From assembly GCA_963796685.1 (NCBI GenBank), contig CAWCMR010000014.1, positions 96,001-160,000 on the forward strand: a stretch of DNA of 64,000 bases, read 5' to 3'. The DNA comes from an uncultured delta proteobacterium (GTDB lineage: Bacteria > Myxococcota_A > Polyangia > Fen-1088). How positions within the stretch are numbered: the stretch's first letter is position 1; each line of letters opens with the position of its first letter. Positions 5,571 through 57,037 of the stretch are shown piece by piece. The notes below the pieces were generated by a model, which worked only from the letters and a program-made list of their open reading frames with translations, had not been told where the DNA came from and ran no database searches. A program made the translations under genes and the position numbers.

Positions 5571-6893
5571 TCAGGGGCCGGGCCACTCCCAGTCATAGTA
5601 GCTCGAGGTGCAGGTCAAGCCATTGGCCTGAACCACAACAGTCGTTCTGACTTTGTTGTAGCTGTAGGGGACATTCGGGTCCGTGTTGACATTGCCGACG
5701 TAGACCCACTGTGGAGTGGGCATCCCAGCGCAGACTTGGCCCAGTGGGGCGGGGAAATTCGTTGAACCGTCGTTCACGAAGGAATACGTGATGCACCCTG
5801 TGGGAGGCACATCGATCTGTACCGACAGCTTCGGATAGAGGGAATCGTCGTGGTATTGAATGTAGAAGGGATCTGGCTGTGCGAGCCAGAGCGTGGCAAT
5901 CCTGCTCTTGGCGCTCGCGCCGGTCTTGGGATCGGTCACGACAACGTAATAGTAGTACCTGTTCGGTGAAGTGGGCGAGCCGCGGCCCTGTAGGTACATC
6001 GTCAAGGTACTGGTTGTTGTGCCCGTGGCCTCGTTCCATTGAGTCTGGGGATTGCTACCCGCTAGATCATCGCACGTATACCACTGATAGGAATACGGAC
6101 CACCAGAGGCGCCGCTCGCACTGACAGTAAATACTGCATTGGGCTGCGAGCTCGAATTGCACATTGTTATGTCATTGACTCCGGTAAGTGTCGGCGGGAT
6201 TGCAGTAGCGCAGTTCGGAAGCGCCCAGCCTGTGTCGCACGTGCAGGTCCCTCCGCTGCAACTGCCGTGGCCGCTGCAGCCCACATTGAGGCAAGGGTCG
6301 ATTGTGCAGCCCGATCCGCCCCACCCACCTGTGCAGGTGCATGCGCCAGCGCTGCACGTGCCATGGCCATTGCACGTTACGCCAGAGCAAGGGTCGATTG
6401 TGCAGGCCGATCCACTCCACCCACCTGTGCAGGTGCATGCGCCAGCGCTGCACGTGCCATGGCCGTTGCAGGTCATGCCAGAGCAAGGGTCGACATCGCA
6501 ACTCGTTCCGGACCAACCACCGGTACAGGTGCAAGTGCCTGCGCTGCATGTGCCATGACCGCTGCAGGTTATGCCAGAGCAAGGGTCAACTTGGCAGTTC
6601 ACACCGGACCATCCGCCGTTGCATGTGCAGGTGTACCCGGTTGTGCTGTTGACGCAGGTGCCATGGCCGCTGCAAGTCTGGCCCGCACAATAGTTGGTCT
6701 GGGTGGTGCCCCCGGTGCCTGATATTCCACCCGCCGCCGCTCCACTCCCGCCCGTACCCACGATGCCGCCAGTGGCAACCACGCCGCCGCTGCCAGGCGC
6801 GCCTCCGGTTGACCCGCCGCGGCCGCCTGAGCCCGGGACACCGCCGGCTCCGCCCACACCGCCGGCTCCGCCCACACCGCCGGTTCCGCCCAC
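5571..6893 (-). CDS. Tenascin/EGF-like repeat protein with Ig-like C-terminal domain; 5' end apparently lost
   Basis: About five 31-aa repeats DPCSGxTCxGHGTCSAGxCTCTGGWSG after a Gly-rich linker; Ig-like YSYQWY..TTSTLT..YYYVVVT. No signal peptide; upstream frame is broken next to the IS cluster. Confidence 0.7.
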   Translation of the reverse strand: MGGTGGVGGAGGVGGAGGVPGSGGRGGSTGGAPGSGGVVATGGIVGTGGSGAAAGGISGTGGTTQTNYCAGQTCSGHGTCVNSTTGYTCTCNGGWSGVNCQVDPCSGITCSGHGTCSAGTCTCTGGWSGTSCDVDPCSGMTCNGHGTCSAGACTCTGGWSGSACTIDPCSGVTCNGHGTCSAGACTCTGGWGGSGCTIDPCLNVGCSGHGSCSGGTCTCDTGWALPNCATAIPPTLTGVNDITMCNSSSQPNAVFTVSASGASGGPYSYQWYTCDDLAGSNPQTQWNEATGTTTSTLTMYLQGRGSPTSPNRYYYYVVVTDPKTGASAKSRIATLWLAQPDPFYIQYHDDSLYPKLSVQIDVPPTGCITYSFVNDGSTNFPAPLGQVCAGMPTPQWVYVGNVNTDPNVPYSYNKVRTTVVVQANGLTCTSSYYDWEWPGP

Positions 6894-7204: not shown

Positions 7205-8660
7205 CATAGGTAGGATCTTAATTCCTCAATGAAATCGATCACTTACTGAACGGATGTTCAAGGTAGTTGCAGAAGACACAGGAATCCTCCTACACATTCG
7301 TTTGCGAAGACAAACGCGAGGAGGTTCCCTGTGCCCAAGAGAGACATTGCCACAATCGAGGCGGAGACACTCAGCCAAAAGCTACAGCAGGTTCTCAGCG
7401 ATGCCGAGGTGGAGAAGGTGGCTCGCCGGTGTGGCTTTCTTCGACGGCGCCGTGAAATCGCCCCGGCCGCGCTTCTTATAGCCTGCATCTCGGCATTGGG
7501 GGCAGGCACGGCTGCGTGGCTCGCGGACATCCTGCGCGCCTTCAACGCGTTCACCGGCAAGGCTGTTCGCTACAAGCCTTTCCACAACCAACTGAGCAAA
7601 CGGCGATTCCCCATCTTCATGCACGCCATTCTCGAACAGGCGCTCGCGAAGCTGACGGCACCTGTGCTTGAGAGTTTGCCCAAGGGCAAGCTGGCTCAGT
7701 TCTCGGAGATCCTGTGCCATGACGGCACCTCGTTTGCGCTCAAAGACACTCTGGCCAGAAAGTGGCCCGGCCGCTTCACGAAGGTGACCCCAGCGGCAGT
7801 GGAGCTCCACGTAACCATGAGCGTCTTGAGGGACAATCCCGTCGCCATTACGCTGGCCCCTGACAAGGAAAGCGAACGCCCATTCGCCCCCAAAGCGGCG
7901 TCTCTCAAAAATCGCCTGGTCCTCGAGGACCGTGGATTCGAGGATCGCGTTGTCTTTGCAGACACTCTCGACGCCGGAGGATTCTTCATCGTTCGCGGCA
8001 AAAAGAACAGCCGACCAATCATCCGAAGTGCTCGCGACAAGAATGGCAGGCGTATCCCTCGTCTCGAGGGCAAGCGACTCAAGTGGCGTGTACTGCCTCG
8101 TCATACGGTCGACCTAGAAATCGAGTGGAAGATCAACGCCCGCAGGACCTACTGTGGTCGTCTCGTTGCCATCTACATCGAAGGAAAACGCAACAAGAAG
8201 GGCTACACCTATCTGCACACGAATCTGTCGAGAGCGACCTTCACCGCTCACGAAGTAGGCAGAGTCTACAGACTCAGATGGCAGATTCAGCTCCTCTTCA
8301 AGGAATGGAAGTCCTACGCAAATCTCCACAAATTCGACACGGCCAAGTCACCCATCGCCGAGGGCCTGATCTGGGCAAGCCTGCTTGCCGCGACCATCAA
8401 ACGAGCGCTCACCCACGCCGCAGAACACGCATGCGGTATTCCACTGTCCACCCAGCGCGCAGCCTGCTCTGCCAAGCATTTCCTCGACGCGATCCTGCTA
8501 TCCATCCTCGAATCTGCCGCGCAGCTCCTGTCGCATATCCGTTCTGCCTTCACTTTCCTCGCGGAAAACGCACCTCGTGCGCATCCCAAACGCGATCAGG
8601 GAATGGGGCGCCTTGCGATGGGATTACGCCATTCCGCCACCGCTTAAGTACCTACCTATG
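7205..8660 (+). mobile_element. IS4-family insertion sequence, 1456 bp
   Basis: 17-bp imperfect IRs CATAGGTAGGATCTTAA / TTAAGTACCTACCTATG; 10-bp target duplication AGGCCGTTCT at 7195-7204 and 8661-8670. Confidence 0.92.
7331..8647 (+). CDS. IS4-family DDE transposase (YREK-motif Glu appears as Gln)
   Basis: HDGTSF, EDRGF, YRLRWQIQLLFKEWKS; fills the IR-bounded element. Confidence 0.88.
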   Translation: MPKRDIATIEAETLSQKLQQVLSDAEVEKVARRCGFLRRRREIAPAALLIACISALGAGTAAWLADILRAFNAFTGKAVRYKPFHNQLSKRRFPIFMHAILEQALAKLTAPVLESLPKGKLAQFSEILCHDGTSFALKDTLARKWPGRFTKVTPAAVELHVTMSVLRDNPVAITLAPDKESERPFAPKAASLKNRLVLEDRGFEDRVVFADTLDAGGFFIVRGKKNSRPIIRSARDKNGRRIPRLEGKRLKWRVLPRHTVDLEIEWKINARRTYCGRLVAIYIEGKRNKKGYTYLHTNLSRATFTAHEVGRVYRLRWQIQLLFKEWKSYANLHKFDTAKSPIAEGLIWASLLAATIKRALTHAAEHACGIPLSTQRAACSAKHFLDAILLSILESAAQLLSHIRSAFTFLAENAPRAHPKRDQGMGRLAMGLRHSATA

Positions 8661-16289: not shown

Positions 16290-18215
16290 ATGAACACAGC
16301 ACGGAAATCGATCACCAGCGTCGGAATCGCGGTCCTCTTCGCGGCTTGCAGCTCAGGCGGGGGCCAGGGCGGGGGCTCTGGCGGCAGCCAGAGCGGCGGC
16401 TCGGGCGGAAACGAGAGCGGGGGCTCGGGCGGTAGCCAGAGCGGGGGCTCGGGCGGCAGCCAGAGCGGGGGCACGAGTGGCAGCCAGAGCGGTGGCTCGG
16501 GTGGCAGCCAGAGCGGGGGCTCGGGCGGCAAGGGGAGCGGTGGCTCGGGCGGTAGCCAGAGCGGGGGCTCGGGCGGCAACGCGAGCGGTGGCACCACTGC
16601 GAAGGGCGGAACGAGCGGCGGCGGCGCGGGCGGCAGTGCAGCCGGCGGCACGACGAGTAGCACGGGTGGCTCCAGCACGCCGAGCGGCGGCACGACCGGC
16701 CCGGGTGGCAGTCAAAGCGGTGGCGCGACAGGCGCGGGTGGTGATTCGTCGCCCGGTAGCGGCGGGACCACAACCCCCTCGACGGTCCTTGTAACGTCTG
16801 CTAGCGGCGCCTACTGGAAGACCGGTACATGGACCGAGGTGACCAGCGGGAGCGCCACGGTTACGGTCAATGATACCTCGACCGCGCAGAACTGGGAAGG
16901 CTTCGGCGGCGCCTTCAACGAATTGGGGTGGACCGTTCTGACCTCGGCCACCATGCAGACTCAGGCCTTGACCTTGCTCTTCAGCCCCACCGATGGTGCA
17001 AACTTCACCATGGGGCGAATCCCGATGGGAGCGAGCGACTACGCCACCAGTCGCTACACCGACGACGACGGTTCGTGGACCGACGTCAATGCCAGCAGCG
17101 GCACGCGCCAGCCTGCGGACACGTCCATGGCAAATTTCTCGATCGATAGAGACAAAAAGAATCTGATCCCCTACATCAAAGCGGCGATGGCGATCAAATC
17201 CGATATTCGTTTCTGGGCCAGTCCGTGGACGCCACCGGTGTGGATGAAGAGCGGGTACAATTCCAACCAAGCTGGCAGCATGTCCGGCTGGAAGCCGTCA
17301 TTCTACGATGGCGGCAACATGAGCAGCGACTCTGGAACCTTGACGGCCTACGCCCAGTACTACACGAAGTTCGTGCAAGGGTACAAGGATCAGGGCATCA
17401 ACATCGAGCTCGTCTCGCCCCAGAACGAGCCAGGTTATGAGCAGAACTACCCGTCGTGCCTCTGGGACAAGACCACCTACGTCAGCTGGGTCAAGACTCT
17501 CGGGCAGGCCATGAGCAGCATCGGCGTCAAGGTCATGCTGGGTACGCTGTCGAATAATGGCGACACTGTTGAAGGCGTCAAGAGGACAGACCTTGACATC
17601 GCGTCTGCAGTGCTAGCCGATAGCACCGCGAAGGGCTTGGTCACGGTCGTCGGCGTCCAATGGGGCATACTCGACGCGGTGAACAAAGGTCAGACGTTCC
17701 AAGGGCTGCCCGTCTGGGCCACCGAGCACAAGTGCGGCAACTATCCGTGGAATCCCTCTGGCTCTCCTACGTACAACAGCACCCAGGCGCCCAACGATCA
17801 GGCGTACGGGGTGGAGAGCTGGGGCTACATCCGAGACGCGATCACAAAGGGAAAAGTGACGGCCTACAACGCCTGGAACATGGTCCTCGACAAGTCCGGC
17901 CTGGGCATCGACACGTCTCGTGATTGGAAACAGGATGCGTTGTTGGTGGCGAATTCGGGAAGTGTTACCGCAACGCCCGCCTACTATGTCTTCCGTCACG
18001 TCTCGCAGTACGTGCAGCCCGGCGCCACCGTGGTTGGCACCTCCGGCGGCGATGCAGTCGCCTTCAAGAACCCGGACAACAGCCTGGTTGCGGTCGTCTA
18101 CAACTCTGGCGCCGAGAACAAGAGCTTCATCGTCAAGATTGGTGGCAAGATGCTCCAGTTCGACATGCCCGGTGACAGCAAGGGCGCCTGGGCCACCATC
18201 AAGTACGGCCCGTAA
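16290..18215 (+). CDS. GH30 glucosylceramidase/beta-1,6-glucanase-type lipoprotein with GGSGGSQS repeats
   Basis: Lipobox LFAAC; WEGFGGAFNE, RIPMGASDY, WASPWTPPVWMK, QNEP, WATEH, WNMVLD, YYVFRHVSQYVQPGA, AFKNPD. Confidence 0.88.
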   Translation: MNTARKSITSVGIAVLFAACSSGGGQGGGSGGSQSGGSGGNESGGSGGSQSGGSGGSQSGGTSGSQSGGSGGSQSGGSGGKGSGGSGGSQSGGSGGNASGGTTAKGGTSGGGAGGSAAGGTTSSTGGSSTPSGGTTGPGGSQSGGATGAGGDSSPGSGGTTTPSTVLVTSASGAYWKTGTWTEVTSGSATVTVNDTSTAQNWEGFGGAFNELGWTVLTSATMQTQALTLLFSPTDGANFTMGRIPMGASDYATSRYTDDDGSWTDVNASSGTRQPADTSMANFSIDRDKKNLIPYIKAAMAIKSDIRFWASPWTPPVWMKSGYNSNQAGSMSGWKPSFYDGGNMSSDSGTLTAYAQYYTKFVQGYKDQGINIELVSPQNEPGYEQNYPSCLWDKTTYVSWVKTLGQAMSSIGVKVMLGTLSNNGDTVEGVKRTDLDIASAVLADSTAKGLVTVVGVQWGILDAVNKGQTFQGLPVWATEHKCGNYPWNPSGSPTYNSTQAPNDQAYGVESWGYIRDAITKGKVTAYNAWNMVLDKSGLGIDTSRDWKQDALLVANSGSVTATPAYYVFRHVSQYVQPGATVVGTSGGDAVAFKNPDNSLVAVVYNSGAENKSFIVKIGGKMLQFDMPGDSKGAWATIKYGP

Positions 18216-18242: not shown

Positions 18243-20573
18243 TCACTTCGATGAAGACGCCCAGCCCACCCCGGCTGGGCGTTTCGCTTTTCTCACGGTC
18301 GATTTGTGCGGAGGCATTCCGCCTGATTGCCACTCACGCCCTCTGGAGACACTCGACCTCGCATACCTGACGCGGCAGCGATGTGAACTTCCGCCTTTCC
18401 TTTGCTGCCTACCACGTCCCCTGTTCGAGCGCGCTGTGCGCATTTCCAGGCCCTGCGTCCGTAGTTCGGTTGCCGATATCATGAGCGGAGAAGAAAGAAT
18501 GCAGCAGAGCCAGAAGGTACCCAGGTCCTGGGTGGTCCAACTTCCCGATACCCCGGTGCGATAGACATGTGCGATCGTTCCGGTTGAGGTCAAAATGACA
18601 ATGTGAAGCGTATTGTCTGCGGTGACCACGCAGTCCGGTGACGACGCTGGGACCGAATTGCCTGACAGCTCCCAGGCTGAGAATGTGGTTTGGTCGACCG
18701 AGGCTGTCGTCCAGTCGGTCTGGGAATAGGCGACATACAGCTTCCCGCCTGCGACCGCCGCAGTGTACCGCCTGTAATCGCTCGTCGTCGGGTCGCTATG
18801 GTTGCACAAAGTCGGTGAGTAGCTATACGTTGCTGATGCTGGTGGGAGCCAATACGTATTCGGTTGCCAGCCCGATCCGAACCCCGAAGTGTGGTCAAAA
18901 TAGACCATCCCATTGCCGGTAAAGGCCACCATCTCGGCATGGTTAGGATTATCGCCATTTCCTTGCTGATATGCGATATCCGGCGCAGACGTCAGTGCGT
19001 AGTCCACCGTGGGAGTGTAGCCGCCATACGTGGTGCCATCGAAGGTAACCCAGCTTGGCATTCCAGACGCCGGCACGGCTGCCATCTGGTACGTAACATC
19101 GGTACTGTTGGGCCAAGCGGCAATGGACACGCCGATGTAACCGAAGGTCGAAGGGCTATTCGTGGACAGCTCTCGAGTGAACGCGTTGTAGCTCGTGCCA
19201 AATCCAGTGGCATGCATGTACGAGCCTGTTGGGCTTGCCCCGGATGCCACGATGTGAACCGTGTTCGAATTGCTGCTGCAGTCCAAATCCGAACGAGCGT
19301 CGAGCTTTGTGGCATCGAGAGCCGGGATGCTTGCCCAGGAGCCAGAGCTGCTGCCGCTGATGACCCGACGATAGATCTTCTGACCACTGCTAGCGAAAAC
19401 CTCGACGCTTGACAAATCGGGACTCGTAGCGCATGGCCCGCTGATAAACGCATTCTTGGCACAGGTTCCACTTCCACCCGAGCACCCGTTCCCGGTCACG
19501 CAGTCGGCGTCAGTTGTACAAGATGTCTTGCACGCGGTGGTGGATGCACAGACAAGATTGCCAGCACAAGATGTGGTCGTGCCTGGCAGGCAGGCGCCGG
19601 CACTACAAGCACCTTGCGGCACAAGAGTCGTTCCCGTCGGCTGCGACTGCGTGTTCGTCAGGGTCGTACAGCTACCCACTCCACAGGGCGTCGTTGGCCA
19701 TGTGCACTGACCGTTCGCCGCACCGGTGCAGCTGCCGCTGCAATCAGAGCTGGTGCCTGTGCAACTCCCATGTCCCGCATGGGGTGCACCAGTCACAGGC
19801 TTGCAGGCGCCAGTTTCGCACGACTCGCACGTGCCAGCGCACGCACGATCACAACAGTGTCCATCCGATGAGCATGACAACCCTGATGCGCAGGTTGCGG
19901 AGGACTGACAGGTCTGGCCCGGAGCGCCCGTACCTCCGCTTCCGCCAGATTCGCCACCGGTGCCGTTTCCACCAGATCCGCTTCCACCAGATCCGCCACC
20001 GGTGCCGCTTCCGCCAGATCCGCCACCGGTGCCGCTTCCGCCAGATCCGCCACCGGTGCCACCAAGGGGCGCATCGAGGGCGTCGGCATTGGGTGCGTCG
20101 ATCGGACCAGCTCCGCCGGTGCCGGGTACGCCCCCAGCGCCCGCCTCGGAAGACGTCGTCGGAGGACCATCGAGCGGCACGTCGGCCATCAAGTCGATGC
20201 TGCCATCCCATCCCCAAGCCCCGCCCGTCCCTTGCCCGCTGTCCATCGAGGCCACGCCTCCCGTGCCAAGACCGGTTTCTCGAATCGCGATGTCGTGGCC
20301 TGCTTGGGAATCGAGCGCAGTGGCATCCAGGCCACCGGAAGGGGGTGGAACCTTGCAGGTCTTGCCGTCCGTCGACTCACAGCAAATGTCGTTCGCTCCG
20401 CAAACGGAGCCCCACGGACAGCTCTTGTCATCTTTGCAGTGGTAGGTTTGGGTAGGATCGATCTTCGGGTCGTTGAAACACCCGAAGCTGAGAATGGAAA
20501 GCAGGGCGGCCAATGCCAGCCCCAGGCGATCCCGGCTGCAAGACGACTGTGAGGAAGATGACGAGAAAGACAT
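18243..20573 (-). CDS. Cys-rich myxobacterial lipoprotein with Gly linker and C-terminal beta-propeller-like domain
   Basis: ATG overlaps the upstream stop (TGATG); lipobox LSFGC; CCDRACAGTCESC-type Cys repeats; beta-rich C-terminal repeats; the last 90 aa or so look non-coding. Confidence 0.7.
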   Translation of the reverse strand: MSFSSSSSQSSCSRDRLGLALAALLSILSFGCFNDPKIDPTQTYHCKDDKSCPWGSVCGANDICCESTDGKTCKVPPPSGGLDATALDSQAGHDIAIRETGLGTGGVASMDSGQGTGGAWGWDGSIDLMADVPLDGPPTTSSEAGAGGVPGTGGAGPIDAPNADALDAPLGGTGGGSGGSGTGGGSGGSGTGGGSGGSGSGGNGTGGESGGSGGTGAPGQTCQSSATCASGLSCSSDGHCCDRACAGTCESCETGACKPVTGAPHAGHGSCTGTSSDCSGSCTGAANGQCTWPTTPCGVGSCTTLTNTQSQPTGTTLVPQGACSAGACLPGTTTSCAGNLVCASTTACKTSCTTDADCVTGNGCSGGSGTCAKNAFISGPCATSPDLSSVEVFASSGQKIYRRVISGSSSGSWASIPALDATKLDARSDLDCSSNSNTVHIVASGASPTGSYMHATGFGTSYNAFTRELSTNSPSTFGYIGVSIAAWPNSTDVTYQMAAVPASGMPSWVTFDGTTYGGYTPTVDYALTSAPDIAYQQGNGDNPNHAEMVAFTGNGMVYFDHTSGFGSGWQPNTYWLPPASATYSYSPTLCNHSDPTTSDYRRYTAAVAGGKLYVAYSQTDWTTASVDQTTFSAWELSGNSVPASSPDCVVTADNTLHIVILTSTGTIAHVYRTGVSGSWTTQDLGTFWLCCILSSPLMISATELRTQGLEMRTARSNRGRGRQQRKGGSSHRCRVRYARSSVSRGREWQSGGMPPHKSTVRKAKRPAGVGWASSSK

Positions 20574-21379
20574 CAGAACGCTCCTGTCAGCACGGCACCT
20601 GCAGTGCCAGGCGCAACGGTTGGTACCAGGGCAACGCTGGACATTGAATCTCGGCCGGAATGCCAACCGAGATAGTAGAGCAATGACCCACCGGCCAGGC
20701 AGGCCGCGCCCGCGCCGTAGCTGACCCAACCGAGGGTCTTGTAGCTCTTGCGTGAGGTATCGGTGTCGCGGTTGAAGTTGTCGGGTTTCTGGAGATCGCT
20801 CGTCATGCTGTTGACCTTGAGGTTCAAGATCACGCCGGTGAGCAACGCGGCGGCACCGACGGAAGCCACCGTGATGCCAGCGATGCGCAGTCCCGAGCCC
20901 GTCTTGCCCTCGATTTGCCCTGGTTGCCGCGCCACGACCCCGGCCTCCGGCGAGATAGGGACCTGGATAGGCTGCGCTTGCGCGACGGGGGTCGAAACGA
21001 CGGCAGGAGGCGGCGAAACGACGGTAGGGGGAGGCTCGCTCTTGGGGAGATATGATTCGCAGGCCTCGATGCGCTTTTGCGCCACCGCCTTTTCTTCAGG
21101 CGTGAGCTTTTCCCCCTTGACCAGGTATTCGCGGAATCGGGCGATGGCATCCTCGTATTTGCGGTTCTGCTCGAAGCATCGTCCCTGGTTGAAGATATAG
21201 GTGATGTCGTTCGTGTCGACATAGAGCTCGGCCAGGAGGTCCACGCCTTTGGCCGGATCGCCGGACAGGCAGGCTTTCTTGGCCATGCGCTCCTTGGCTT
21301 GTCTGCTGGCCGCAGAAGCGGGCTCCGGCAACGACACCAGAATCGCGAGTATCACCAACAACATCCCTAGGCAACGCAT
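20573..21379 (-). CDS. Myxobacterial TPR protein with C-terminal Gly-rich hydrophobic segments
   Basis: Signal peptide; YIFNQGRCFEQNRKYEDAIARFREYL; Pro-rich linker; GLRIAGI.. and final VLTGAF. Confidence 0.75.
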   Translation of the reverse strand: MRCLGMLLVILAILVSLPEPASAASRQAKERMAKKACLSGDPAKGVDLLAELYVDTNDITYIFNQGRCFEQNRKYEDAIARFREYLVKGEKLTPEEKAVAQKRIEACESYLPKSEPPPTVVSPPPAVVSTPVAQAQPIQVPISPEAGVVARQPGQIEGKTGSGLRIAGITVASVGAAALLTGVILNLKVNSMTSDLQKPDNFNRDTDTSRKSYKTLGWVSYGAGAACLAGGSLLYYLGWHSGRDSMSSVALVPTVAPGTAGAVLTGAF

Positions 21380-21463: not shown

Positions 21464-21541
21464 ACAGCGGAGACCGCCGGTGACTCGCAACGATGTCGCG
21501 GGATCGCGGTACGTCGTCCCTCGGTGGCTCCATCCGGTGTC

Positions 21542-22732
21542 TCAGTGCAAGGCTGGGACGGTGGCGTCCGCGTAGCGGGCCGGATCCTGAATGAATCGAT
21601 CGCGGCACAGATCGCTGCAAAAATAGTATGTCTTGCCCTGGTACTCGGAGCGGGCGGCGGCATGGTAGCGGTGGATCTTCATTCTGCACACCGGGTCTTG
21701 CACCTCGACGTCGGCCTCTGCGCGGGTGGGTAGCACCTTCGCTGCTCCATCGGTGGCGACGAGCGCATGCAGATAGGAGACCAAGTCGTCGACCTCGGGC
21801 TCCGTCAGGTAGTCGCGGTACGAGGGCATGAGCGGGTCGTAGCCGGAGACGACCTGGTCGCCGGGATCGAGGATGGACCGCCGCAGGTAAGCGTCATCGG
21901 CCGAGACGGTGGCTCCGCCCACCATCCGCACTGTCCGGCCGGCCAAGCCGTCGAGCGAAGGCCCGGTCTTGAGGTCGGCGTGGCATCCTCGACAACCCAG
22001 GGTTTGAAACAAGCCCAGCCCGCGCGAGGCTGCGGACGTTTCGGGCTTCTTCTCGTTCGACTTGGTGACGCCTTTTGCCATCGCGGCGGCGTCCGCGTCG
22101 AGCATGGTGGCATCGGCCACCAGGCGCAGAACGGCTTTGTCGTCCAGGCTGCCGTAGACACCGCGGACTTGCCCGCGACGGTCGACCAGGAAAAGGAGCG
22201 ACGTGTGCAGGATCGGCTCTCGCGGAATATTGGTGTGCTCGAACGGCACCTTCATGGCTTGGGCGAATTCGGTTATCTGGGCCGCAGGGGGACGTAGGAG
22301 CAGCCAGCGCGGATCGGCGTTCCACTTGGCGGCGTAGGCCTTCAGCACCTCCGGCGTGTCGTGGTCGGGATCGATCGAGAACGACACGAAGCGAAGGTCC
22401 GCCGACGGTATCGCCCTTCTGAGCAGGCTCATCTTGGCCGTGATGATCGGACACATGGTCGTGCACCGGGTGTAGATGAAGTCGGCGATCCACACGTGCC
22501 CGCGCAAGGCCGACTCGTCCATCACCTGCCCCTCGGTATCGACGAAGGCGAAGGGAGGTACGTCCCCCAGAGTGGGCAAAGATCGGCGGGCATGCGGTAC
22601 CGGATGCGCGATCCGAATCGCGCGCGAGACTACGAGCGCGATCCCCAAGAGCGCTGCAAAGCCGCAGGCCCCCAAGGCCAGGAGACTCTTCGGCGCGACC
22701 CGCCTGGGCCGGGACGGCGAGGGGTGCTTCAG
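21542..22732 (-). CDS. Membrane-anchored SCO (SenC) - cytochrome c - YHS fusion protein
   Basis: N-terminal TM; FIYTRCTTMCP (CxxxC) and ILHTS (SCO Cu ligands); GCRGCH..LMPSY (class I heme c); DPVCRMKI..YQGKTYYFCSDLC (YHS). Start uncertain: CTG 22732 overlapping the upstream stop, or TTG 22675. Confidence 0.85.
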   Translation of the reverse strand: MKHPSPSRPRRVAPKSLLALGACGFAALLGIALVVSRAIRIAHPVPHARRSLPTLGDVPPFAFVDTEGQVMDESALRGHVWIADFIYTRCTTMCPIITAKMSLLRRAIPSADLRFVSFSIDPDHDTPEVLKAYAAKWNADPRWLLLRPPAAQITEFAQAMKVPFEHTNIPREPILHTSLLFLVDRRGQVRGVYGSLDDKAVLRLVADATMLDADAAAMAKGVTKSNEKKPETSAASRGLGLFQTLGCRGCHADLKTGPSLDGLAGRTVRMVGGATVSADDAYLRRSILDPGDQVVSGYDPLMPSYRDYLTEPEVDDLVSYLHALVATDGAAKVLPTRAEADVEVQDPVCRMKIHRYHAAARSEYQGKTYYFCSDLCRDRFIQDPARYADATVPALH

Positions 22733-23931
22733 CGTCGTTGCCGTCGCCGTCGCCTTCGCAGCATGACCAACGCGCCGAGCATCGCGGTGCTGACGAACCA
22801 AGAAGCTCCGCCGCTGGCAGAGATGTCGCACCCGCCCGACCCGGTCTTGGCGGGCGCGCCCATCCCAGTGCTGGCCGATGTACCCGTCGAGCCGCTCGTT
22901 CCGCCCGCGCTGCCACCCGAGTCCGTCCTGCCTCCTGAGCCCGTCAGCCCTCCGGCTCCGGCGCCCCCGCCACCCTCGGTGGTGCCGCCCGTCCCCGCGC
23001 TGCCTCCTGAGCCCGATCGCCCTGCGGAGCCAGCACTCCCGCCCTCGCCAATGGTACCACCGGAACCTGGGCCACCGCCCGAGCCGGCCGTGCCCCCAGC
23101 GCTGTTGCTGCCGCCTTTGCCGGTGGTGCCGCCGGAACCCGCGCCACTGCCCGAACCGGCCGTGCCCCCAGCTCCGCTGCCGCCGCTTCCACCGGCCCCG
23201 ATGCTCGAGCCACCACCCCCACCCGAGCCGCCGCCGGCTCCGCTGGCGTCGGAGAGACCGGTCGATGCATCTTTTGCAACCGACGCATCCGCCGAATCGT
23301 TACCGCCGTCGGGGGACGATCCTGTCGAGATGTCCGCGCAGTGATGATAGTAGCAATCGTTGGCCGGGTGATCGGTCATCACCATGATGACCTGAAGGGT
23401 GCACGGCTGCGCGCTGGTGCAAGTCGCGCTCTTCGGAATCGTGACCTGGAATGTTTGATTGCCGCTCTGTTGCGTCGTCGCGGTCGAGCCGGCCGGCAAG
23501 CCATCGGCGATGACGGGCTGGGTCGGCGACCAGACTGGATCCTTCATGATGGCGGGCGTGCAATTGGTGCCTGCCTGGGCCTGCGGATCGGGCAGCGACG
23601 AAAGGGTGTGCGTCGAGCTCGCTCCCTCGACCAGTGCGATGCGAAACCAGCCCGGGTGCGTGACGGTCACCGTGATGGAGACGGGAACCGTCTGACCGGA
23701 TTGAAGCACGGTCACCGTCTTGGTCGGAGTGCCGGCAGAGTCGCCCAAGGCGGTGTTGGGCTGTGCCGCGCAAGGTCCGTTCTTCTGCGGACCACCGACG
23801 GAATCTTGCGACATCCAACTCGCCGGAGAGTCGATCTTGAAGTGGGCGTGCGCCGTGGATGGTATCCACGCCGCGCCAAAGGCCAACCACGGCACGAACG
23901 AATACTTCCGAGTCCAAGCCCGACACGCCAT
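22729..23931 (-). CDS. His-brace, LPMO-like protein (SCE4755-family-like) with Gly linker and MYXO-CTERM
   Basis: Signal ending AHA|H gives mature His1 (HFKIDSP..QKNGPC); second His in THPGWFRIAL; CTLQVIMVM; YYHHCADI; tail GSGGCDIS-TM-RRRRRRQRR. Confidence 0.75.
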   Translation of the reverse strand: MACRAWTRKYSFVPWLAFGAAWIPSTAHAHFKIDSPASWMSQDSVGGPQKNGPCAAQPNTALGDSAGTPTKTVTVLQSGQTVPVSITVTVTHPGWFRIALVEGASSTHTLSSLPDPQAQAGTNCTPAIMKDPVWSPTQPVIADGLPAGSTATTQQSGNQTFQVTIPKSATCTSAQPCTLQVIMVMTDHPANDCYYHHCADISTGSSPDGGNDSADASVAKDASTGLSDASGAGGGSGGGGGSSIGAGGSGGSGAGGTAGSGSGAGSGGTTGKGGSNSAGGTAGSGGGPGSGGTIGEGGSAGSAGRSGSGGSAGTGGTTEGGGGAGAGGLTGSGGRTDSGGSAGGTSGSTGTSASTGMGAPAKTGSGGCDISASGGASWFVSTAMLGALVMLRRRRRRQRR

Positions 23932-24001
23932 GACTACGTTGGACGCCGCAGTCGCCGGAAGGTTTCCGGATCTCGTGCGCGTCCTTGGCCGATCGATTTG
24001 G

Positions 24002-25132
24002 TCACCCACCTACGCGGGCGAGAAACTGCTGCCGTCGATCCTCGCTCCAGCGCGCGCAATAGGCCGGCCTCTGCTCGACAATGCGCTTGGTGCAAAGCGT
24101 GCACGAGGGTTGGCAGGGGTTGATGGCCTCCACGACCTCGCCGCGCGCTTTGCGTGGCCACAAGGGATCTGCAAAGAGCACGCGGCCCAGCCCCACCAGA
24201 TCCGCCTTGCCATCGCGAAGCGCGGACTCGGCGATGGCCGGGTCTTGGATGCGACCGGCGGCAATGACCGGAATATGGGGAAGGGCCTGCTTGATCGCGT
24301 GGGCGAAGGGGACCAAGAAGGCCTGGTTGCGATCGTCCGCCAGGTAATTCGGCGAGGCGAACGAGTCGTAGCAGCCGGCCATGACCGAGAGATAGGCGAC
24401 GCCCGCCTGGGCCAGCCGCTTGGCGAAGGGCAGGGTGTCGGCCAGGGTCAGGCCCCCGGGAACGTATTCGTCGGCCAAAAAGCGATAGCCCACGGGATAG
24501 TCATCGCCCACCGCTGCGCGGACTGCGCCGACGACGTCGAGGGGAAAGCGCATTCGCCGTTCGGCGTCGCCGCCGTAGGCATCCTGGCGCAGGTTGGTTC
24601 GCGGGGATAGAAATTGGGGTAACAGATAGCCGGTGCCGCCGTGCAGCTCCACGGCGTCGAACCCGGCCTGCCTCGCGCGAAGGGCACCGGCCGCGAAAGC
24701 GGTGAGCGTCGTTTCGATGTCGGTCTGCTCCATGGCCTTGGGCACCGCTCCCCACGTGGGAAAAGCGGACGGCGCCACCCGATCGGGACGCTTGGCATAT
24801 CGTCCGGCGTGATGGATCTGCAACACCGCCTTGGCGCCGCCGCCTCGGATGGCCGAGGCCAGGCGCGCAAGCCCGGCAACGAAGCGATCGTCCTGGTGTT
24901 CGTCGGTGGTCAGCAGCGTGCGCGGATTGCCGAGGCCGCGCGGCTCGACCGTCGTGTTCTCCACCACCACCATGCCCACACCCGACTCGGCCATCTCGGC
25001 ATAGTAGTCGAGCACGAGATCGTTCACCTGGTGATCCGGGTCGGGGTACGCCAGGTACATGGGCAGACTGACCAGGCGGTTTTCGAGCCGCAGCTGGCCG
25101 ATGCGCAGGGGAGTGAAAAGAAGGTTCGTCAT
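24002..25132 (-). CDS. NADH:flavin oxidoreductase (Old Yellow Enzyme family)
   Basis: LFTPLRIG..LENRLV, LQIHHAGR, AGFDAVELHGGTGYL..QFLSPRTNLRQDAYGG, ADLVGLGR; C-terminal Cys cluster. Confidence 0.88.
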   Translation of the reverse strand: MTNLLFTPLRIGQLRLENRLVSLPMYLAYPDPDHQVNDLVLDYYAEMAESGVGMVVVENTTVEPRGLGNPRTLLTTDEHQDDRFVAGLARLASAIRGGGAKAVLQIHHAGRYAKRPDRVAPSAFPTWGAVPKAMEQTDIETTLTAFAAGALRARQAGFDAVELHGGTGYLLPQFLSPRTNLRQDAYGGDAERRMRFPLDVVGAVRAAVGDDYPVGYRFLADEYVPGGLTLADTLPFAKRLAQAGVAYLSVMAGCYDSFASPNYLADDRNQAFLVPFAHAIKQALPHIPVIAAGRIQDPAIAESALRDGKADLVGLGRVLFADPLWPRKARGEVVEAINPCQPSCTLCTKRIVEQRPAYCARWSEDRRQQFLARVGG

Positions 25133-25141
25133 GGAGCGCGC

Positions 25142-28283: not shown

Positions 28284-28340
28284 CCAAAAGCTGTCCACAC
28301 CCGGGATAGCGCTCGTCCACCACGGTCGCTATCTTGGTGA

Positions 28341-28472
<132 letters not shown>

Positions 28473-28681
28473 GACGAAGTCCGGTGCCGCAAGCATGCCG
28501 GGCTACGGCGGCTCGCCGCAGCACCACCGCGATCAAGTGGGCTAGACGCCGTCTCGCGCAACGGCCGACGCCCCAGGATCGGCGGCTTCGTCGTGGTCGC
28601 GTTGGCAACACATTTTCTGCCCGCGGTACTTTGCACCTCCGGGCACAAGGACTAGTCTTCGCCCAAATGCACGTGTCTCGC

Positions 28682-29590
28682 ATGCTCCGAGGTCTCCTCC
28701 CCAGCCTCCTGGTCGCCAGCATGGTCGTGTGGATCAGCGCGTGTGCGAAGAAGGCCCCACCCGGTTCGCCGGCAACCACCGCCTTGTCCGGGATCGTCAA
28801 GCCACCAACCGACAAGCCATCGACGGAAGGCGATGGTTGGCCGCCCGGTATCGAGCCCGACAAGCTGGACCCGTTCAAGCGCAAGGTCTTCGACGATGTG
28901 ATCAACCGCGAGTCATCGGCGTGCGGCAAAGGGCACAGCCTGCTCCACTCGATCAGGCAAGACGGCGCCTGCCGGGCTTCCTTCTATGCCGTCCGCTACG
29001 TCGCCCGTTTGGCGGATGCGGGATTCTCCGAGCCTGAGATCGGCGAGAAGCTCACACAGCGTTTTCGCGCCCCGCGCGTCCCCTACATCGACGTGTCCCA
29101 GGCACCCAGCAAGGGCGGGCCATCCGGTCGCGTGACCATCGTGGAGTTCGCCGACTACGAGTGCGCGCATTGCAAAGCGGCGCAGAAGGTGATGCAGCCG
29201 CTTCTGGACAAGTACCCCGGCCTCGTTACCCTGTATTTCAAGCACTTTCCCATCAGCTCGAACAATGCCTTCAACGCCGCTCAAGCCGCAGCGGCGGCAC
29301 AGAAGCAGGGTAAGTTCTGGCAGCTCAGCGACAAGATTTGGGAAAACTCGGAGAATCTGTCGCCAGCCCTGCTGGAGAGCTTGGCCAAGGAGATTGGCTT
29401 GGATTTTTCACGCTGGTATAGCGATGTCGGATCGGAAGAGGTTCGGGCGCGTGTGCAACGCGACAGGGCCGAGGCACGCGCCCTGGGGATCCGCAGAACG
29501 CCCGCCATCTTCATCAATGGTCGCAGGTATACCGACGAGCCCGACCTTCCCGGTCTGACGGATTGGATCGACGAAGAGCTGGGGCGTTGA
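28682..29590 (+). CDS. DsbA/thioredoxin-fold lipoprotein
   Basis: Lipobox ISAC; VEFADYECAHC, FKHFP, GIRRTPAIFING. Confidence 0.88.
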   Translation: MLRGLLPSLLVASMVVWISACAKKAPPGSPATTALSGIVKPPTDKPSTEGDGWPPGIEPDKLDPFKRKVFDDVINRESSACGKGHSLLHSIRQDGACRASFYAVRYVARLADAGFSEPEIGEKLTQRFRAPRVPYIDVSQAPSKGGPSGRVTIVEFADYECAHCKAAQKVMQPLLDKYPGLVTLYFKHFPISSNNAFNAAQAAAAAQKQGKFWQLSDKIWENSENLSPALLESLAKEIGLDFSRWYSDVGSEEVRARVQRDRAEARALGIRRTPAIFINGRRYTDEPDLPGLTDWIDEELGR

Positions 29591-54571: not shown

Positions 54572-56971
<2,400 letters not shown>

Positions 56972-57037
56972 GGTGGTTAGAGCCCAAAGCTGGCACGGAG
57001 ATGCGGGCAAAGAAAGGGAATTGGGCCGGCCCCTCGG

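Follow-up and report, generated by a model that had tools for sequence, protein, structure and literature searches.

Whether a surface LPMO-like protein of a myxobacterium is served by a copper and redox partner of its own is the question raised by two overlapping genes in the genome of an uncultured soil myxobacterium. Gene 1 encodes a tethered protein with a predicted LPMO fold, and gene 2 encodes a fusion of SCO, cytochrome c, and YHS domains. LPMOs usually acquire copper unaided in vitro; to our knowledge, the in vivo source of copper and of the first electron for bacterial LPMO-type sites is poorly defined. We analyzed the pair within a 64,000-nucleotide stretch of genomic DNA (hereafter, the window) and compared it with related loci in other genomes and metagenomes. 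The first-pass annotation of the window had proposed either that the fusion is a dedicated partner that loads copper into and donates electrons to the LPMO-like protein or that the pair is a surface copper-capture pathway feeding SCO.

Gene 1 encodes a predicted LPMO-fold protein of the SCE4755 family

Gene 1 is a minus-strand ORF of 400 amino acids plus a stop codon (22729..23931), and the gene call of the source assembly comprises the same 400 residues. In the NCBIfam profile search, NF043005 (sce4755_fam) scored 100.4 bits (cut-off 75), and 102.8 bits when searched on the genome. The Pfam LPMO_10 profile (PF03067) reached 22.3 bits, which is below its gathering cut-off of 23, and covered profile positions 55–162 only. 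No description of SCE4755 was found in a literature search.

Residues 1–29 (23845..23931, minus strand) form a putative signal peptide, which ends with AHA directly before His30 (STAHA|HFKIDSP). A29, H30, and F31 were invariant in all 30 members of the subfamily, and A27 was at least 90% conserved; H92 of the HPGW motif and the segment C193-Y-Y-H-H-C198 were likewise invariant (30/30). Across the family, His1, His63, and Tyr166 of the mature numbering, corresponding to His30, His92, and Tyr195, were invariant in 86 of 86 sequences. The mature N terminus is thus predicted to be His, as the first-pass annotation had read it, provided that the signal is cleaved at this site.

The domain that follows (approximately residues 30–205; 23317..23844, minus strand) was assigned from its AF2 model, its fold matches, and the invariant His1, His63, and Tyr166. 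The model, a check that the first-pass annotation had suggested, returned an LPMO fold with a pLDDT of 94.3 and a pTM of 0.89. As shown by VIA structure comparison, the top 50 matches were all LPMOs or X325 (Z 8.6–11.9), their alignments started from residue 1, and this residue superposed on His1 of solved LPMOs. Foldseek gave 15 matches at E ≤ 0.001, every one an LPMO, with the highest TMq (0.57) for AA15. The best relative in the PDB profile search was also an AA15 protein (5msz, E 1.4e-8), in which H92 and Y195 of gene 1 aligned with His- and Tyr-containing motifs; we take the aligned His and Tyr residues of 5msz to be copper ligands. We therefore confidently predict from the model a domain of LPMO fold, probably of histidine-brace type, with copper binding and polysaccharide cleavage as possible functions.

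Compared with known AA15 and AA10 proteins, the domain resembled Thermobia domestica AA15 5msz (Z 11.7, rmsd 3.3 over 142 residues) and CBP21 2bem (Z 11.7), and its family has the N-terminal His, second His, and Tyr of these proteins as invariant residues. Gene 1 and 5msz have in common the C-x-x-C-T-L-Q and Y-x-x-C-A-D-I motifs as well as those surrounding the second His. In contrast to these enzymes, gene 1 is a Myxococcota protein in which the place of a CBM is taken by a Gly/Ser tether followed by a MYXO-CTERM-type tail, and additional His residues (TDH188 and YYH196H197) are conserved in its subfamily. In sequence, AA15, to which the insect enzyme 5msz belongs, is a nearer relative of the SCE4755-type bacterial family than bacterial AA10 is. 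The best matches in the protein atlas were SCE4755 clusters (0.87 and 0.86) and an arthropod cluster (0.86), which serve as leads only because all are below 0.9.

The Gly/Ser-rich tether spans approximately 160 amino acids (approximately residues 206–365; 22837..23316, minus strand), and it was variable in length and unalignable across 30 homologues. The C terminus (22732..22836, minus strand) consists of Cys368, a hydrophobic helix, and an Arg-rich end, RRRRRRQRR; C368 was at least 90% conserved among the 30 homologues. This architecture resembles that described for the MYXO-CTERM signal, namely a Cys-containing motif, a TM helix, and an Arg-rich tail (PMC11980579). Many of the homologues are annotated as "MYXO-CTERM domain-containing protein" by JGI, and the NCBIfam MYXO-CTERM models gave zero matches to gene 1 at E ≤ 1.

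Gene 2 encodes a membrane-anchored SCO–cytochrome c–YHS fusion

The longest ORF of gene 2 (21542..22831, minus strand) encodes 429 amino acids from the first GTG at 22831. The true start is likely TTG 22801 (419 amino acids; ORF 21542–22801), which aligned with the ATG of the homologue P0003. The source's own call (P0004, 326 amino acids) starts at the internal M104 and would remove the TM helix and the beginning of the SCO domain.

The predicted TM anchor covers residues 50–73 (22613..22684, minus strand), where the AF2 model has a helix and a hydrophobic stretch is kept in 20 homologues. The SCO1/SenC domain (residues 92–222; 22166..22558, minus strand) scored 86.6 bits with PF02630 (cut-off 22.8) and matched the solved SCO proteins 4hde, 1xzo, and 4wbj with E-values of 5.5e-23 to 4e-11. 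The class-I cytochrome c domain (residues 269–356; 21764..22027, minus strand) scored 23.9 bits with PF00034 (cut-off 21.3), and its closest solved relative was the cytochrome c domain in 1w2l (E 3.2e-12), an entry titled "cytochrome oxidase subunit II." The YHS domain (residues 377–423; 21563..21703, minus strand) scored 59.8 bits with PF04945 (cut-off 30.3). The domain reading given to both genes by the first-pass annotation was thereby borne out. In all 20 fusion homologues, the SCO ligands C123xxxC127 and H209, the C280xxC283H284 motif with Met335, where heme attachment is predicted, and the YHS residues D379, P380, C382, M384, C405, and C409 were invariant. The cytochrome c domain was present in all paired fusions, and the YHS domain was missing from those of L138–L140.

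The AF2 model of whole gene 2 had a pLDDT of 72 and a pTM of 0.61 with low-confidence linkers at residues 253–261 and 361–370, and it gave no support for a fixed heme-to-SCO geometry. Gene 2 shares with Sco/SenC chaperones the TM anchor, the thioredoxin-like SCO domain with CxxxC and His, and a fused class-I cytochrome c. A natural Sco–cytochrome c fusion was reportedly studied by Banci et al. (2011, J Biol Inorg Chem 16:391). Unlike such fusions, gene 2 has an additional C-terminal YHS domain, and the neighbor in its clade is an LPMO-fold gene rather than an oxidase. The titles and abstract openings found in the literature described no SCO–cytochrome c–YHS protein.

The two genes overlap and are tightly spaced

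Both ORFs lie on the minus strand and overlap, confirming the arrangement of two overlapping co-oriented genes seen at first pass. As the stop codon of gene 1 is at 22729–22731, the overlap is 103 nt from GTG 22831 or 73 nt from TTG 22801. In the 73-nt overlap (22729..22801, minus strand), the 5′ end of gene 2 is laid, in a different frame, over the end of gene 1 that encodes the MYXO-CTERM-type tail. Similarly, the gene 2 start was placed 64–73 nt before the end of the gene 1 stop codon at 8 of 14 paired loci (the window, L121, L122, L136, L137, L221, L222, and L227), and the gene 2 TM helix started 14–66 nt past this stop codon at all 14 paired loci examined.

A terminator-like hairpin was located by consensus scan at 21465..21479 (minus strand), 63 nt after the gene 2 stop codon; it is weak on its own because the scan gave 5 sites against 2.7 expected. 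Complex prediction with gene 2 residues 85–429 and the LPMO-like domain returned no answer (score 0.00), which is neutral either way. None of the sequencing runs listed was an RNA run; three DNA runs, from soil or paddy, contained only 0.06–0.07 of the words.

The pairing is confined to one small lineage

Adjacency of genes 1 and 2 was observed in nine genomes (G000, G401, which is also L135, G402, G410, and G436–G440) and eight metagenome loci (L215, L221, L222, L227, L244, L245, L248, and L270). When the lengths of the longest contigs were compared by eye between the homologue tables of the two genes, the gene 1 subfamily having roughly 200 members, 24 pairs beyond that of the window coincided, which suggests that many further contigs carry both genes. 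The titles and abstract openings retrieved in the literature search contained no description of a pairing of an LPMO-like protein with an SCO fusion.

The pairing was not conserved across SCE4755-like proteins, an outcome that the first reading had named as one that would refute its proposal. At 85 loci of the wider, distant family, tblastn detected no gene for an SCO, cytochrome c, or YHS protein at distances of up to 6 kb (0/85), and profile HMMs applied to the same loci gave one weak SCO-like match (E 9e-4). Within the taxonomic family, 3 of 49 SCE4755-bearing genomes contained the pair. In the close subfamily, 22 metagenome loci were informative; the pair was present at 7 and absent from 15 of them, and some of the pair-less loci encode an LPMO-like domain 79–80% identical to that of the window. 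In the same genus, G411, a MAG that is 82% complete, has an 83%-identical copy of gene 1, and the 2.5 kb that follow this copy contain no fusion. Fusion-less close LPMO-like genes had diverse downstream genes, mostly on the opposite strand, and no alternative conserved partner was found there at the eight loci inspected. The largest neighbor clusters at the 85 wider-family loci comprised at most 14 loci, with MTHFR, a PNPOx-like gene, and GH31 at variable distance; these clusters reflect synteny inside one over-sampled genus. Therefore, the pairing is real but narrow, and the LPMO-like protein generally does without an SCO–cytochrome c–YHS partner.

Viewed from gene 2, species genomes provided 46 fusion loci, of which 6 were linked to an LPMO-like gene; the other 40, in several phyla, had no LPMO-like neighbor.

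The cassette apparently descends as a unit while its flanks change

As observed in the tree of 53 fusions, all 13 LPMO-linked ones formed one clade (SH-aLRT 99; one change needed), and its three sub-clades matched sub-clades of the LPMO-like tree. This fits a single origin of the cassette, co-divergence of its genes, and several losses, with co-inheritance apparently reaching down to approximately 65% identity for the gene 1 domain and approximately 50–60% for gene 2.

The surrounding sequences behaved differently. DNA similarity to the same-genus G401 was limited to 21569–23895 of the window. When neighbors at seven paired loci were clustered, using all-against-all blastp-fast on a smaller set, the LPMO-like gene was the only shared non-fusion cluster, barring one cluster of opposite-strand ORFs; this cluster lies over the LPMO-like coding region and was taken to be a shadow of that gene. 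The first-pass annotation had placed the pair near a GH30 cluster. One GH30 gene does occur in the window (16290–18215, plus strand), but a linkage was rejected, as neither this gene nor any of six other window neighbors was found at 16 related loci.

A further claim, that heme-copper oxidase genes are lacking, was supported over the whole contig of the window (C14), on which there was no match to COX1 or COX2. Another SCO of the genome (C25:2038530-2038883) is located beside COX1 and a COX2–cytochrome c gene (C25:2034686-2038883); the genome thus has an SCO in a cox cluster, making gene 2 a second, spare one. For unpaired fusions, we collected 67 upstream and 76 downstream ORFs at 40 loci, with no upstream ORF picked at 4 of them. 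COX1 accounted for 2 of 67 and COX2 for 3 of 76 ORFs in these lists, which are crude because the GC3-based gene picker misses Gly-rich genes, gene 1 among them. The SCO–cytochrome c–YHS fusion is typically outside cox operons; the opposite would, by the first reading, have spoken against its proposal.

These data bear directly on the alternative that there is no direct functional link. The fusion would then be a copper chaperone of general use in the periplasm, serving oxidases for instance, that landed once downstream of an LPMO-like gene and was co-inherited with it. We consider this a serious competitor, though improbable by itself. The same architecture recurs at the 40 LPMO-free loci among heterogeneous neighbors, a few of which are cox genes, and the pairing arose once and was broken several times by losses that spared the LPMO-like gene. 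However, a chance landing accords poorly with ORFs that are tightly spaced or overlapping at 14 of 14 paired loci, with an adjacency that survived divergence to approximately 50–60% identity while every flanking gene changed, and with the presence of an SCO inside the cox cluster of this genome.

Discussion

The pairing hints at a dedicated copper-loading or electron-donating helper. Our preferred explanation, to which we give a probability of roughly 0.4, is that the gene 2 product is a lineage-specific periplasmic copper-loading or redox helper that acts on the LPMO-like protein before its export to the surface. This is supported by the overlap and spacing of the genes, their adjacency in nine genomes and eight metagenome loci, the single clade with changing flanks, and the spare SCO. 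It is weakened by the results for the wider family (0/85), the genomes (3/49), the close loci without the pair (15/22), and the unlinked fusions (40/46), as well as by the usual ability of LPMOs to acquire copper unaided in vitro. The original idea of a dedicated copper or electron partner is accordingly compatible with a tight, conserved cassette in one lineage, but not with a family-wide pairing.

In the helper scheme, the two genes would be co-transcribed and probably translationally coupled. The gene 1 product would be exported by Sec and held temporarily at the inner membrane via its MYXO-CTERM helix, an inner-membrane stage described for MYXO-CTERM proteins (PMC11980579). By analogy with such proteins of Myxococcus xanthus, it would then be cut, receive a lipid anchor, and pass to the cell surface. 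The gene 2 product would be anchored in the inner membrane with three flexibly linked modules facing the periplasm, so that at some stage, as predicted from their sequences, both proteins would sit at the inner membrane on its periplasmic side. The YHS module may capture copper, the SCO module may hand it over and perform thiol/disulfide chemistry, and the cytochrome c module may transfer single electrons that set the redox state of the copper, Cu(II) or Cu(I), or of the Cys residues. The fusion would in this way load and/or reduce the LPMO-like copper site in the periplasm near the inner membrane, prior to display. Sco-like chaperones are described in bacteria without an aa3 oxidase and as having other roles (PMC7558416). 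Slightly more tentatively, the fusion may be a YHS–SCO–cytochrome c "maturase" that inserts and pre-reduces the histidine-brace copper in the periplasm, after which the MYXO-CTERM pathway displays the protein.

Alternatively, the flow of copper may be the reverse. In a relay like that of fungal X325/Bim1, the surface His-brace domain would scavenge Cu(II), and the periplasmic YHS, SCO, and cytochrome c modules would receive it, reduce it, and distribute it to cuproenzymes. The fold is in keeping with this possibility, as X325 (6ibi) at Z 11.4 ties with true LPMOs, the best match being 11.9. X325/Bim1 is further described as having an N-terminal His brace, a long tether, and a surface lipid anchor, and as being linked to the handling of copper and not to the cleavage of polysaccharides (PMC10952591). 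The tether and lipid anchor predicted for gene 1 parallel those of GPI-anchored Bim1, which is reported to bind Cu and to be associated with copper transporters (PMC10952591), and the wider SCE4755 family is without CAZyme context. The X325 copper site is described as completed by an Asp carboxylate (PMC10952591). On the other hand, the gene 1 family has retained the axial Tyr of AA15 together with motifs common to an active AA15 enzyme. The partner also differs, being an SCO fusion instead of a Ctr transporter. The outer membrane would lie between the two proteins as a barrier for the copper, the genes beside the pair included no importer or outer-membrane channel for copper, and most family members lack any copper-trafficking neighbor. 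Such a relay is therefore unlikely in our view.

Least probable, and by a long way from an even chance, is a catalytic role in which the LPMO copper, as it turns over, is reduced again and again by the cytochrome c domain, with SCO and YHS as accessories. A c-type cytochrome domain is described as reducing and activating bacterial LPMOs (PMC8981238), and the cytochrome c domain outlasts YHS in the paired fusions. Against this, the mature LPMO-like protein is predicted on the cell surface, away from a cytochrome that is anchored in the inner membrane; moreover, the SCO ligands are equally invariant, and most relatives work without a cytochrome fusion. That cytochrome, CjX183 of Cellvibrio japonicus Cbp2D, is likened to gene 2 by description as a c-type cytochrome able to reduce a bacterial LPMO copper site; as far as this description goes, it differs in being part of a large secreted protein, with neither an SCO/YHS fusion nor a periplasmic membrane anchor (PMC8981238).

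Bacterial operons of YcnI (DUF1775), CopCD, PCuAC, and Sco offer a further parallel to the cassette, as they are described as encoding, beside copper-trafficking genes, a protein that is secreted or tethered to the membrane and has a copper site with an N-terminal His (PMC8424229). YcnI is, however, described with a cupredoxin fold and a mono-histidine brace (PMC8424229), in contrast to the LPMO fold of gene 1 and its triple-fusion partner.

The narrow distribution limits the generality of these readings; the helper would be at most a lineage-specific add-on and sets no rule for LPMOs. The AA15 affinity of this bacterial family may interest work on LPMO evolution. Only a single bacterial protein electron donor for LPMOs, a cytochrome domain, is described as shown in vitro (PMC8981238), and the cassette is a concrete pair of an LPMO-fold protein and a copper chaperone–cytochrome with which copper loading and the first electron can be studied. 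If the maturase proposal is true, it would be the first dedicated protein machinery that matures a bacterial LPMO-family protein, and some LPMO-type copper sites would be chaperone-loaded rather than self-loaded. The cassette also bears on whether the surface LPMO-like proteins of myxobacteria are enzymes or copper handlers.

An LPMO-fold, putatively surface-anchored protein and an SCO-cytochrome c-YHS fusion

Two minus-strand ORFs in the same orientation span 21542-24009 of the window, which comes from a 7.3-Mb, 88.6% complete MAG. They form a cassette, in which a gene for an LPMO-fold protein (gene 1) lies directly upstream of one for an SCO-cytochrome c-YHS fusion (gene 2); the domain identities of both proteins and the structure of the cassette were directly observed. 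Gene 1 runs from an ATG at 23931 to a stop codon at 22729-22731, and its start is identical to that of the source's 400-aa call. It matched NF043005 (NCBIfam, 'SCE4755 family polysaccharide monooxygenase-like protein'), the curated model that already exists for this family, with 100.4 bits (cut-off 75), and Pfam LPMO_10 scored 22.3 bits, slightly below its cut-off of 23. No mention of the SCE4755 family was found in the literature searched. The signal peptide, as read from the sequence, is predicted to end after AHA and before H30, so that the mature N terminus would be His, as the first-pass annotation had claimed. This His1 was invariant in the whole-family alignment (n=86), where His63, Tyr166 and two Cys were also among the invariant residues. 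In the subfamily, A29, H30, F31, H92 (HPGW), H188 and C193-Y-Y-H-H-C198 were invariant in 30/30 members.

The AlphaFold2 model of the mature gene 1 domain, built from the 86-sequence alignment, had a pLDDT of 94.3 and a pTM of 0.89. All 15 Foldseek matches at E ≤ 0.001 were LPMOs. Similarly, the best 50 VIA-align rows were all LPMOs or the LPMO-like copper protein X325 (Z 8.6-11.9), and residue 1 of the model superposed on the N-terminal His of the solved proteins. A sequence-profile search ranked the insect AA15 enzyme 5msz (E 1.4e-8) as the nearest solved relative, ahead of AA13 and AA10; the profile alignment showed motifs common to gene 1 and 5msz around the second His and the Tyr. Over 23317-23844 (-), the family was thus nearer to this insect enzyme than to bacterial AA10 (4oy7, E 0.015). 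As a lead only, an arthropod cluster was among the three nearest matches in the protein atlas. The domain is followed by a Gly/Ser tether of ~160 residues and then by a tail in which Cys368 precedes a hydrophobic helix and a run of Arg, the same three parts as in the MYXO-CTERM architecture outlined in PMC11980579. Gene 1 encodes an SCE4755-family LPMO-fold protein of putative function.

All three Pfam domains of gene 2 (21542-22831, -) were over cut-off, namely SCO1/SenC (86.6 bits), class-I cytochrome c (23.9 bits) and YHS (59.8 bits). C123xxxC127, H209, C280xxC283H284, M335 and the YHS Cys/Met residues were invariant in an alignment of 20 fusion homologues. The SCO part matched solved Sco proteins with E down to 5.5e-23, and the best match of the cytochrome part was the cytochrome c domain of 1w2l, an entry named 'cytochrome oxidase subunit II' (E 3.2e-12). 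In the model of the whole protein (pLDDT 72, pTM 0.61), a disordered N-terminal tail precedes a helix at residues 50-73, after which come three folded domains with low-confidence linkers between them. The earlier domain reading of both genes is thus borne out by the Pfam/NCBIfam matches, the LPMO-fold model and the invariant ligand residues. The source's own call for gene 2 (P0004) has 326 aa and starts at the internal M104, so that the anchor and the first SCO-domain residues are missing; the longer form is favoured by the existence of homologues with 380-420 aa.

In a same-genus locus, L123 (G402:C18:140069-143821), the gene 2 orthologue is split into two overlapping frames with one in-match TGA, owing to a frameshift, pseudogenisation or misassembly. 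Five Planctomycetota loci (L155, L157, L164, L179, L180) show a second, weaker SCO-like match directly upstream of the fusion's SCO domain; these are tandem SCO domains or genes. As judged from listings, the literature searched gave no account of a triple SCO-cytochrome c-YHS fusion, nor of such a fusion being linked to an LPMO-fold gene. Banci et al. reportedly had a Sco-cytochrome c fusion as their subject in 2011. Sco-like chaperones with roles beyond oxidase assembly are covered in a review (PMC7558416), and N-terminal-His copper proteins are known beside copper-trafficking genes, as described for YcnI (PMC8424229).

Junction between the two genes

The possible starts of gene 2 are GTG 22831 and TTG 22801, which places its 5' end within the MYXO-CTERM coding end of gene 1, in a different frame, with an overlap of 103 or 73 nt, respectively. 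TTG 22801 aligns with the ATG of a homologue (P0003, 82% identical), and GGAG lies four bases upstream of it. A start codon 64-73 nt ahead of the end of the gene 1 stop codon was observed in 8 of the 14 paired loci examined; in L121 and L122, the gene 2 start within the gene 1 end is ATG. The distance from the gene 1 stop codon to the beginning of the gene 2 TM helix is 14-66 nt in every one of the 14.

In three species-level MAGs (L138:7700-7970, L139:7740-8010 and L140:7690-7960), whose fusions are without YHS, gene 2 follows directly after the gene 1 TGA and in frame. No ATG, GTG or TTG was found before the TM helix there, and translation probably starts at a conserved CTG that lies 15 nt past the stop codon and is preceded, eight bases upstream, by GAGG. 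Alternatively, TGA read-through may yield a two-TM fusion protein.

Distribution of the pair

NF043005 was present in 74/401 genomes sampled from the phylum, and 6 kb on each side of 85 matches from the other 73 genomes was surveyed. None of these 85 genes had a neighbour related to the SCO, cytochrome c or YHS part of gene 2 (tblastn, E ≤ 0.01). An SCO-domain profile HMM gave a single weak match (E 9e-4), and the LPMO-like HMM, used as a positive control, recovered 85/85. In the taxonomic family, 49 of 61 genomes, the source genome counted, carry an SCE4755-family gene, and the two genes are adjacent in only three (G000, which is the source, G401 and G478; coordinates of both matched). Within the genus, the pair occurs in G401, G402 and G410; same-genus G411 (MAG 82% complete) has an LPMO-like gene 83% identical, but the 2.5 kb available downstream of it contains no fusion. 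Metagenomes gave 38 close-subfamily loci of at least 50% identity, 22 of them informative (a match, or at least 1.2 kb downstream). Seven were paired and 15 unpaired, the latter including domains 79-80% identical to the window's; a partial locus, L270, was paired in addition. The pairing noted in the first-pass annotation thus holds as a tight cassette in one lineage and is not generally conserved in the wider family (0/85), the taxonomic family (3/49) or the close metagenome loci (7/22). Indirect support for pairing came from 24 gene 1 and gene 2 homologue clusters with an equal-sized longest contig (tables read by eye).

On the fusion side, a species-genome scan yielded 46 loci at which a single ORF combines SCO with cytochrome c; they belong to Myxococcota, Planctomycetota and Acidobacteriota. 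An LPMO-like gene lies directly upstream in six of them (L135-L140, L135 being from G401; tblastn and HMM). Around the other 40, the largest neighbour cluster covers at most 6 loci, LPMO_10 was absent from the top 25 Pfam families listed, and the crudely picked neighbours were heterogeneous. COX1 was seen in 2/67 upstream ORFs, COX2 in 3/76 downstream ORFs and HMA twice, indicating that the fusion does not usually sit in cox operons.

History and flanks

A quick ML tree of 53 fusions placed the 13 that are LPMO-linked in a single clade (SH-aLRT 99, one change needed). This clade sits within the Polyangiaceae fusions, and its closest outgroups are L141 and L142, both unpaired. In a quick LPMO-like tree, all 16 paired rows fell inside one group of 28-29 rows, whose other members were 5-6 unpaired and 7 unknown rows; none of the 11 rows in the sister group was paired. 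Three sub-clades appeared in both trees: L136/L137/L245; L227 with L138-L140; and the window with L121, L122, L215, L221 and L222. On the simplest reading of these trees, the fusion would have been recruited once, have co-diverged with the LPMO-like gene and have been lost at least three or four times; some of the metagenome contigs may carry paralogues.

DNA similarity between the window and G401 is limited to 21569-23895, and seven neighbours from the window, among them GH30, an OYE-type reductase and FKBP, were found in none of 16 related loci. The suggested link to GH30 is therefore not supported. In L122 from G410, only ~230 bp separates the LPMO-like gene from an upstream segment with the OYE-type 5' end and the spacer toward FKBP (L122:2-210 against window 24933-25141, 90% identity), so that most of the OYE-type gene (window 24002-24932) is missing there. 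The GH30 glycoside hydrolase itself (16290-18215, +; Glyco_hydro_30 1.1e-19) has a C-terminal sandwich domain. Two ORFs without a Pfam match follow on the minus strand: a long one (18243-20729, up to 828 aa) that contains Gly-rich repeats and numerous Cys, and one of 268 aa (20573-21379) whose N terminus is signal-like and whose C-terminal part includes a hydrophobic stretch. A DDE transposase (7331-8647, +; PF01609, 4.4e-18) adjoins a protein with teneurin-type EGF repeats (5571-6893, -). A DsbA/thioredoxin-like protein (28334-29590, +; Thioredoxin_4 8.1e-23), 4.4 kb upstream of gene 1 on the opposite strand, was not conserved in the related loci examined.

Possible role of the cassette

The earlier observation that the window has no haem-copper oxidase genes extends to the whole of its contig, C14. 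Elsewhere in the genome, COX1 occurs at six sites and COX2 at two; in one of these clusters (C25:2034686-2038883), COX1 and a COX2-cytochrome c gene are accompanied by an SCO of their own, indicating that gene 2 is an extra SCO. A P1B-type ATPase of 812 aa (54572-57010, -), 32 kb from the cassette, has an N-terminal YHS domain (1.9e-10), an HMBD and an E1-E2_ATPase domain (2e-55); it may supply periplasmic YHS/SCO proteins with copper.

We propose, with a probability of roughly 0.4, that the gene 2 product acts as a lineage-specific periplasmic copper-insertion/redox helper for the LPMO-like protein. Both products would reside at the inner membrane, facing the periplasm, at the stage that precedes processing and outward transport of the MYXO-CTERM protein. 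This reading is favoured because both products would face the periplasm, the genes are tightly coupled and co-inherited, and another SCO serves the oxidase. Against it, most relatives, very close ones included, are without the partner, and the fusion family occurs elsewhere without LPMO-like genes. Somewhat unlikely, the product could be a general chaperone merely inherited as a neighbour of the LPMO-like gene. Less probable still is a surface copper-capture relay resembling Bim1/X325. Catalytic electron donation, by analogy with that described for CjX183 (PMC8981238), seems very improbable. The LPMO-fold/SCO-fusion cassette is real and testable but narrow in distribution.
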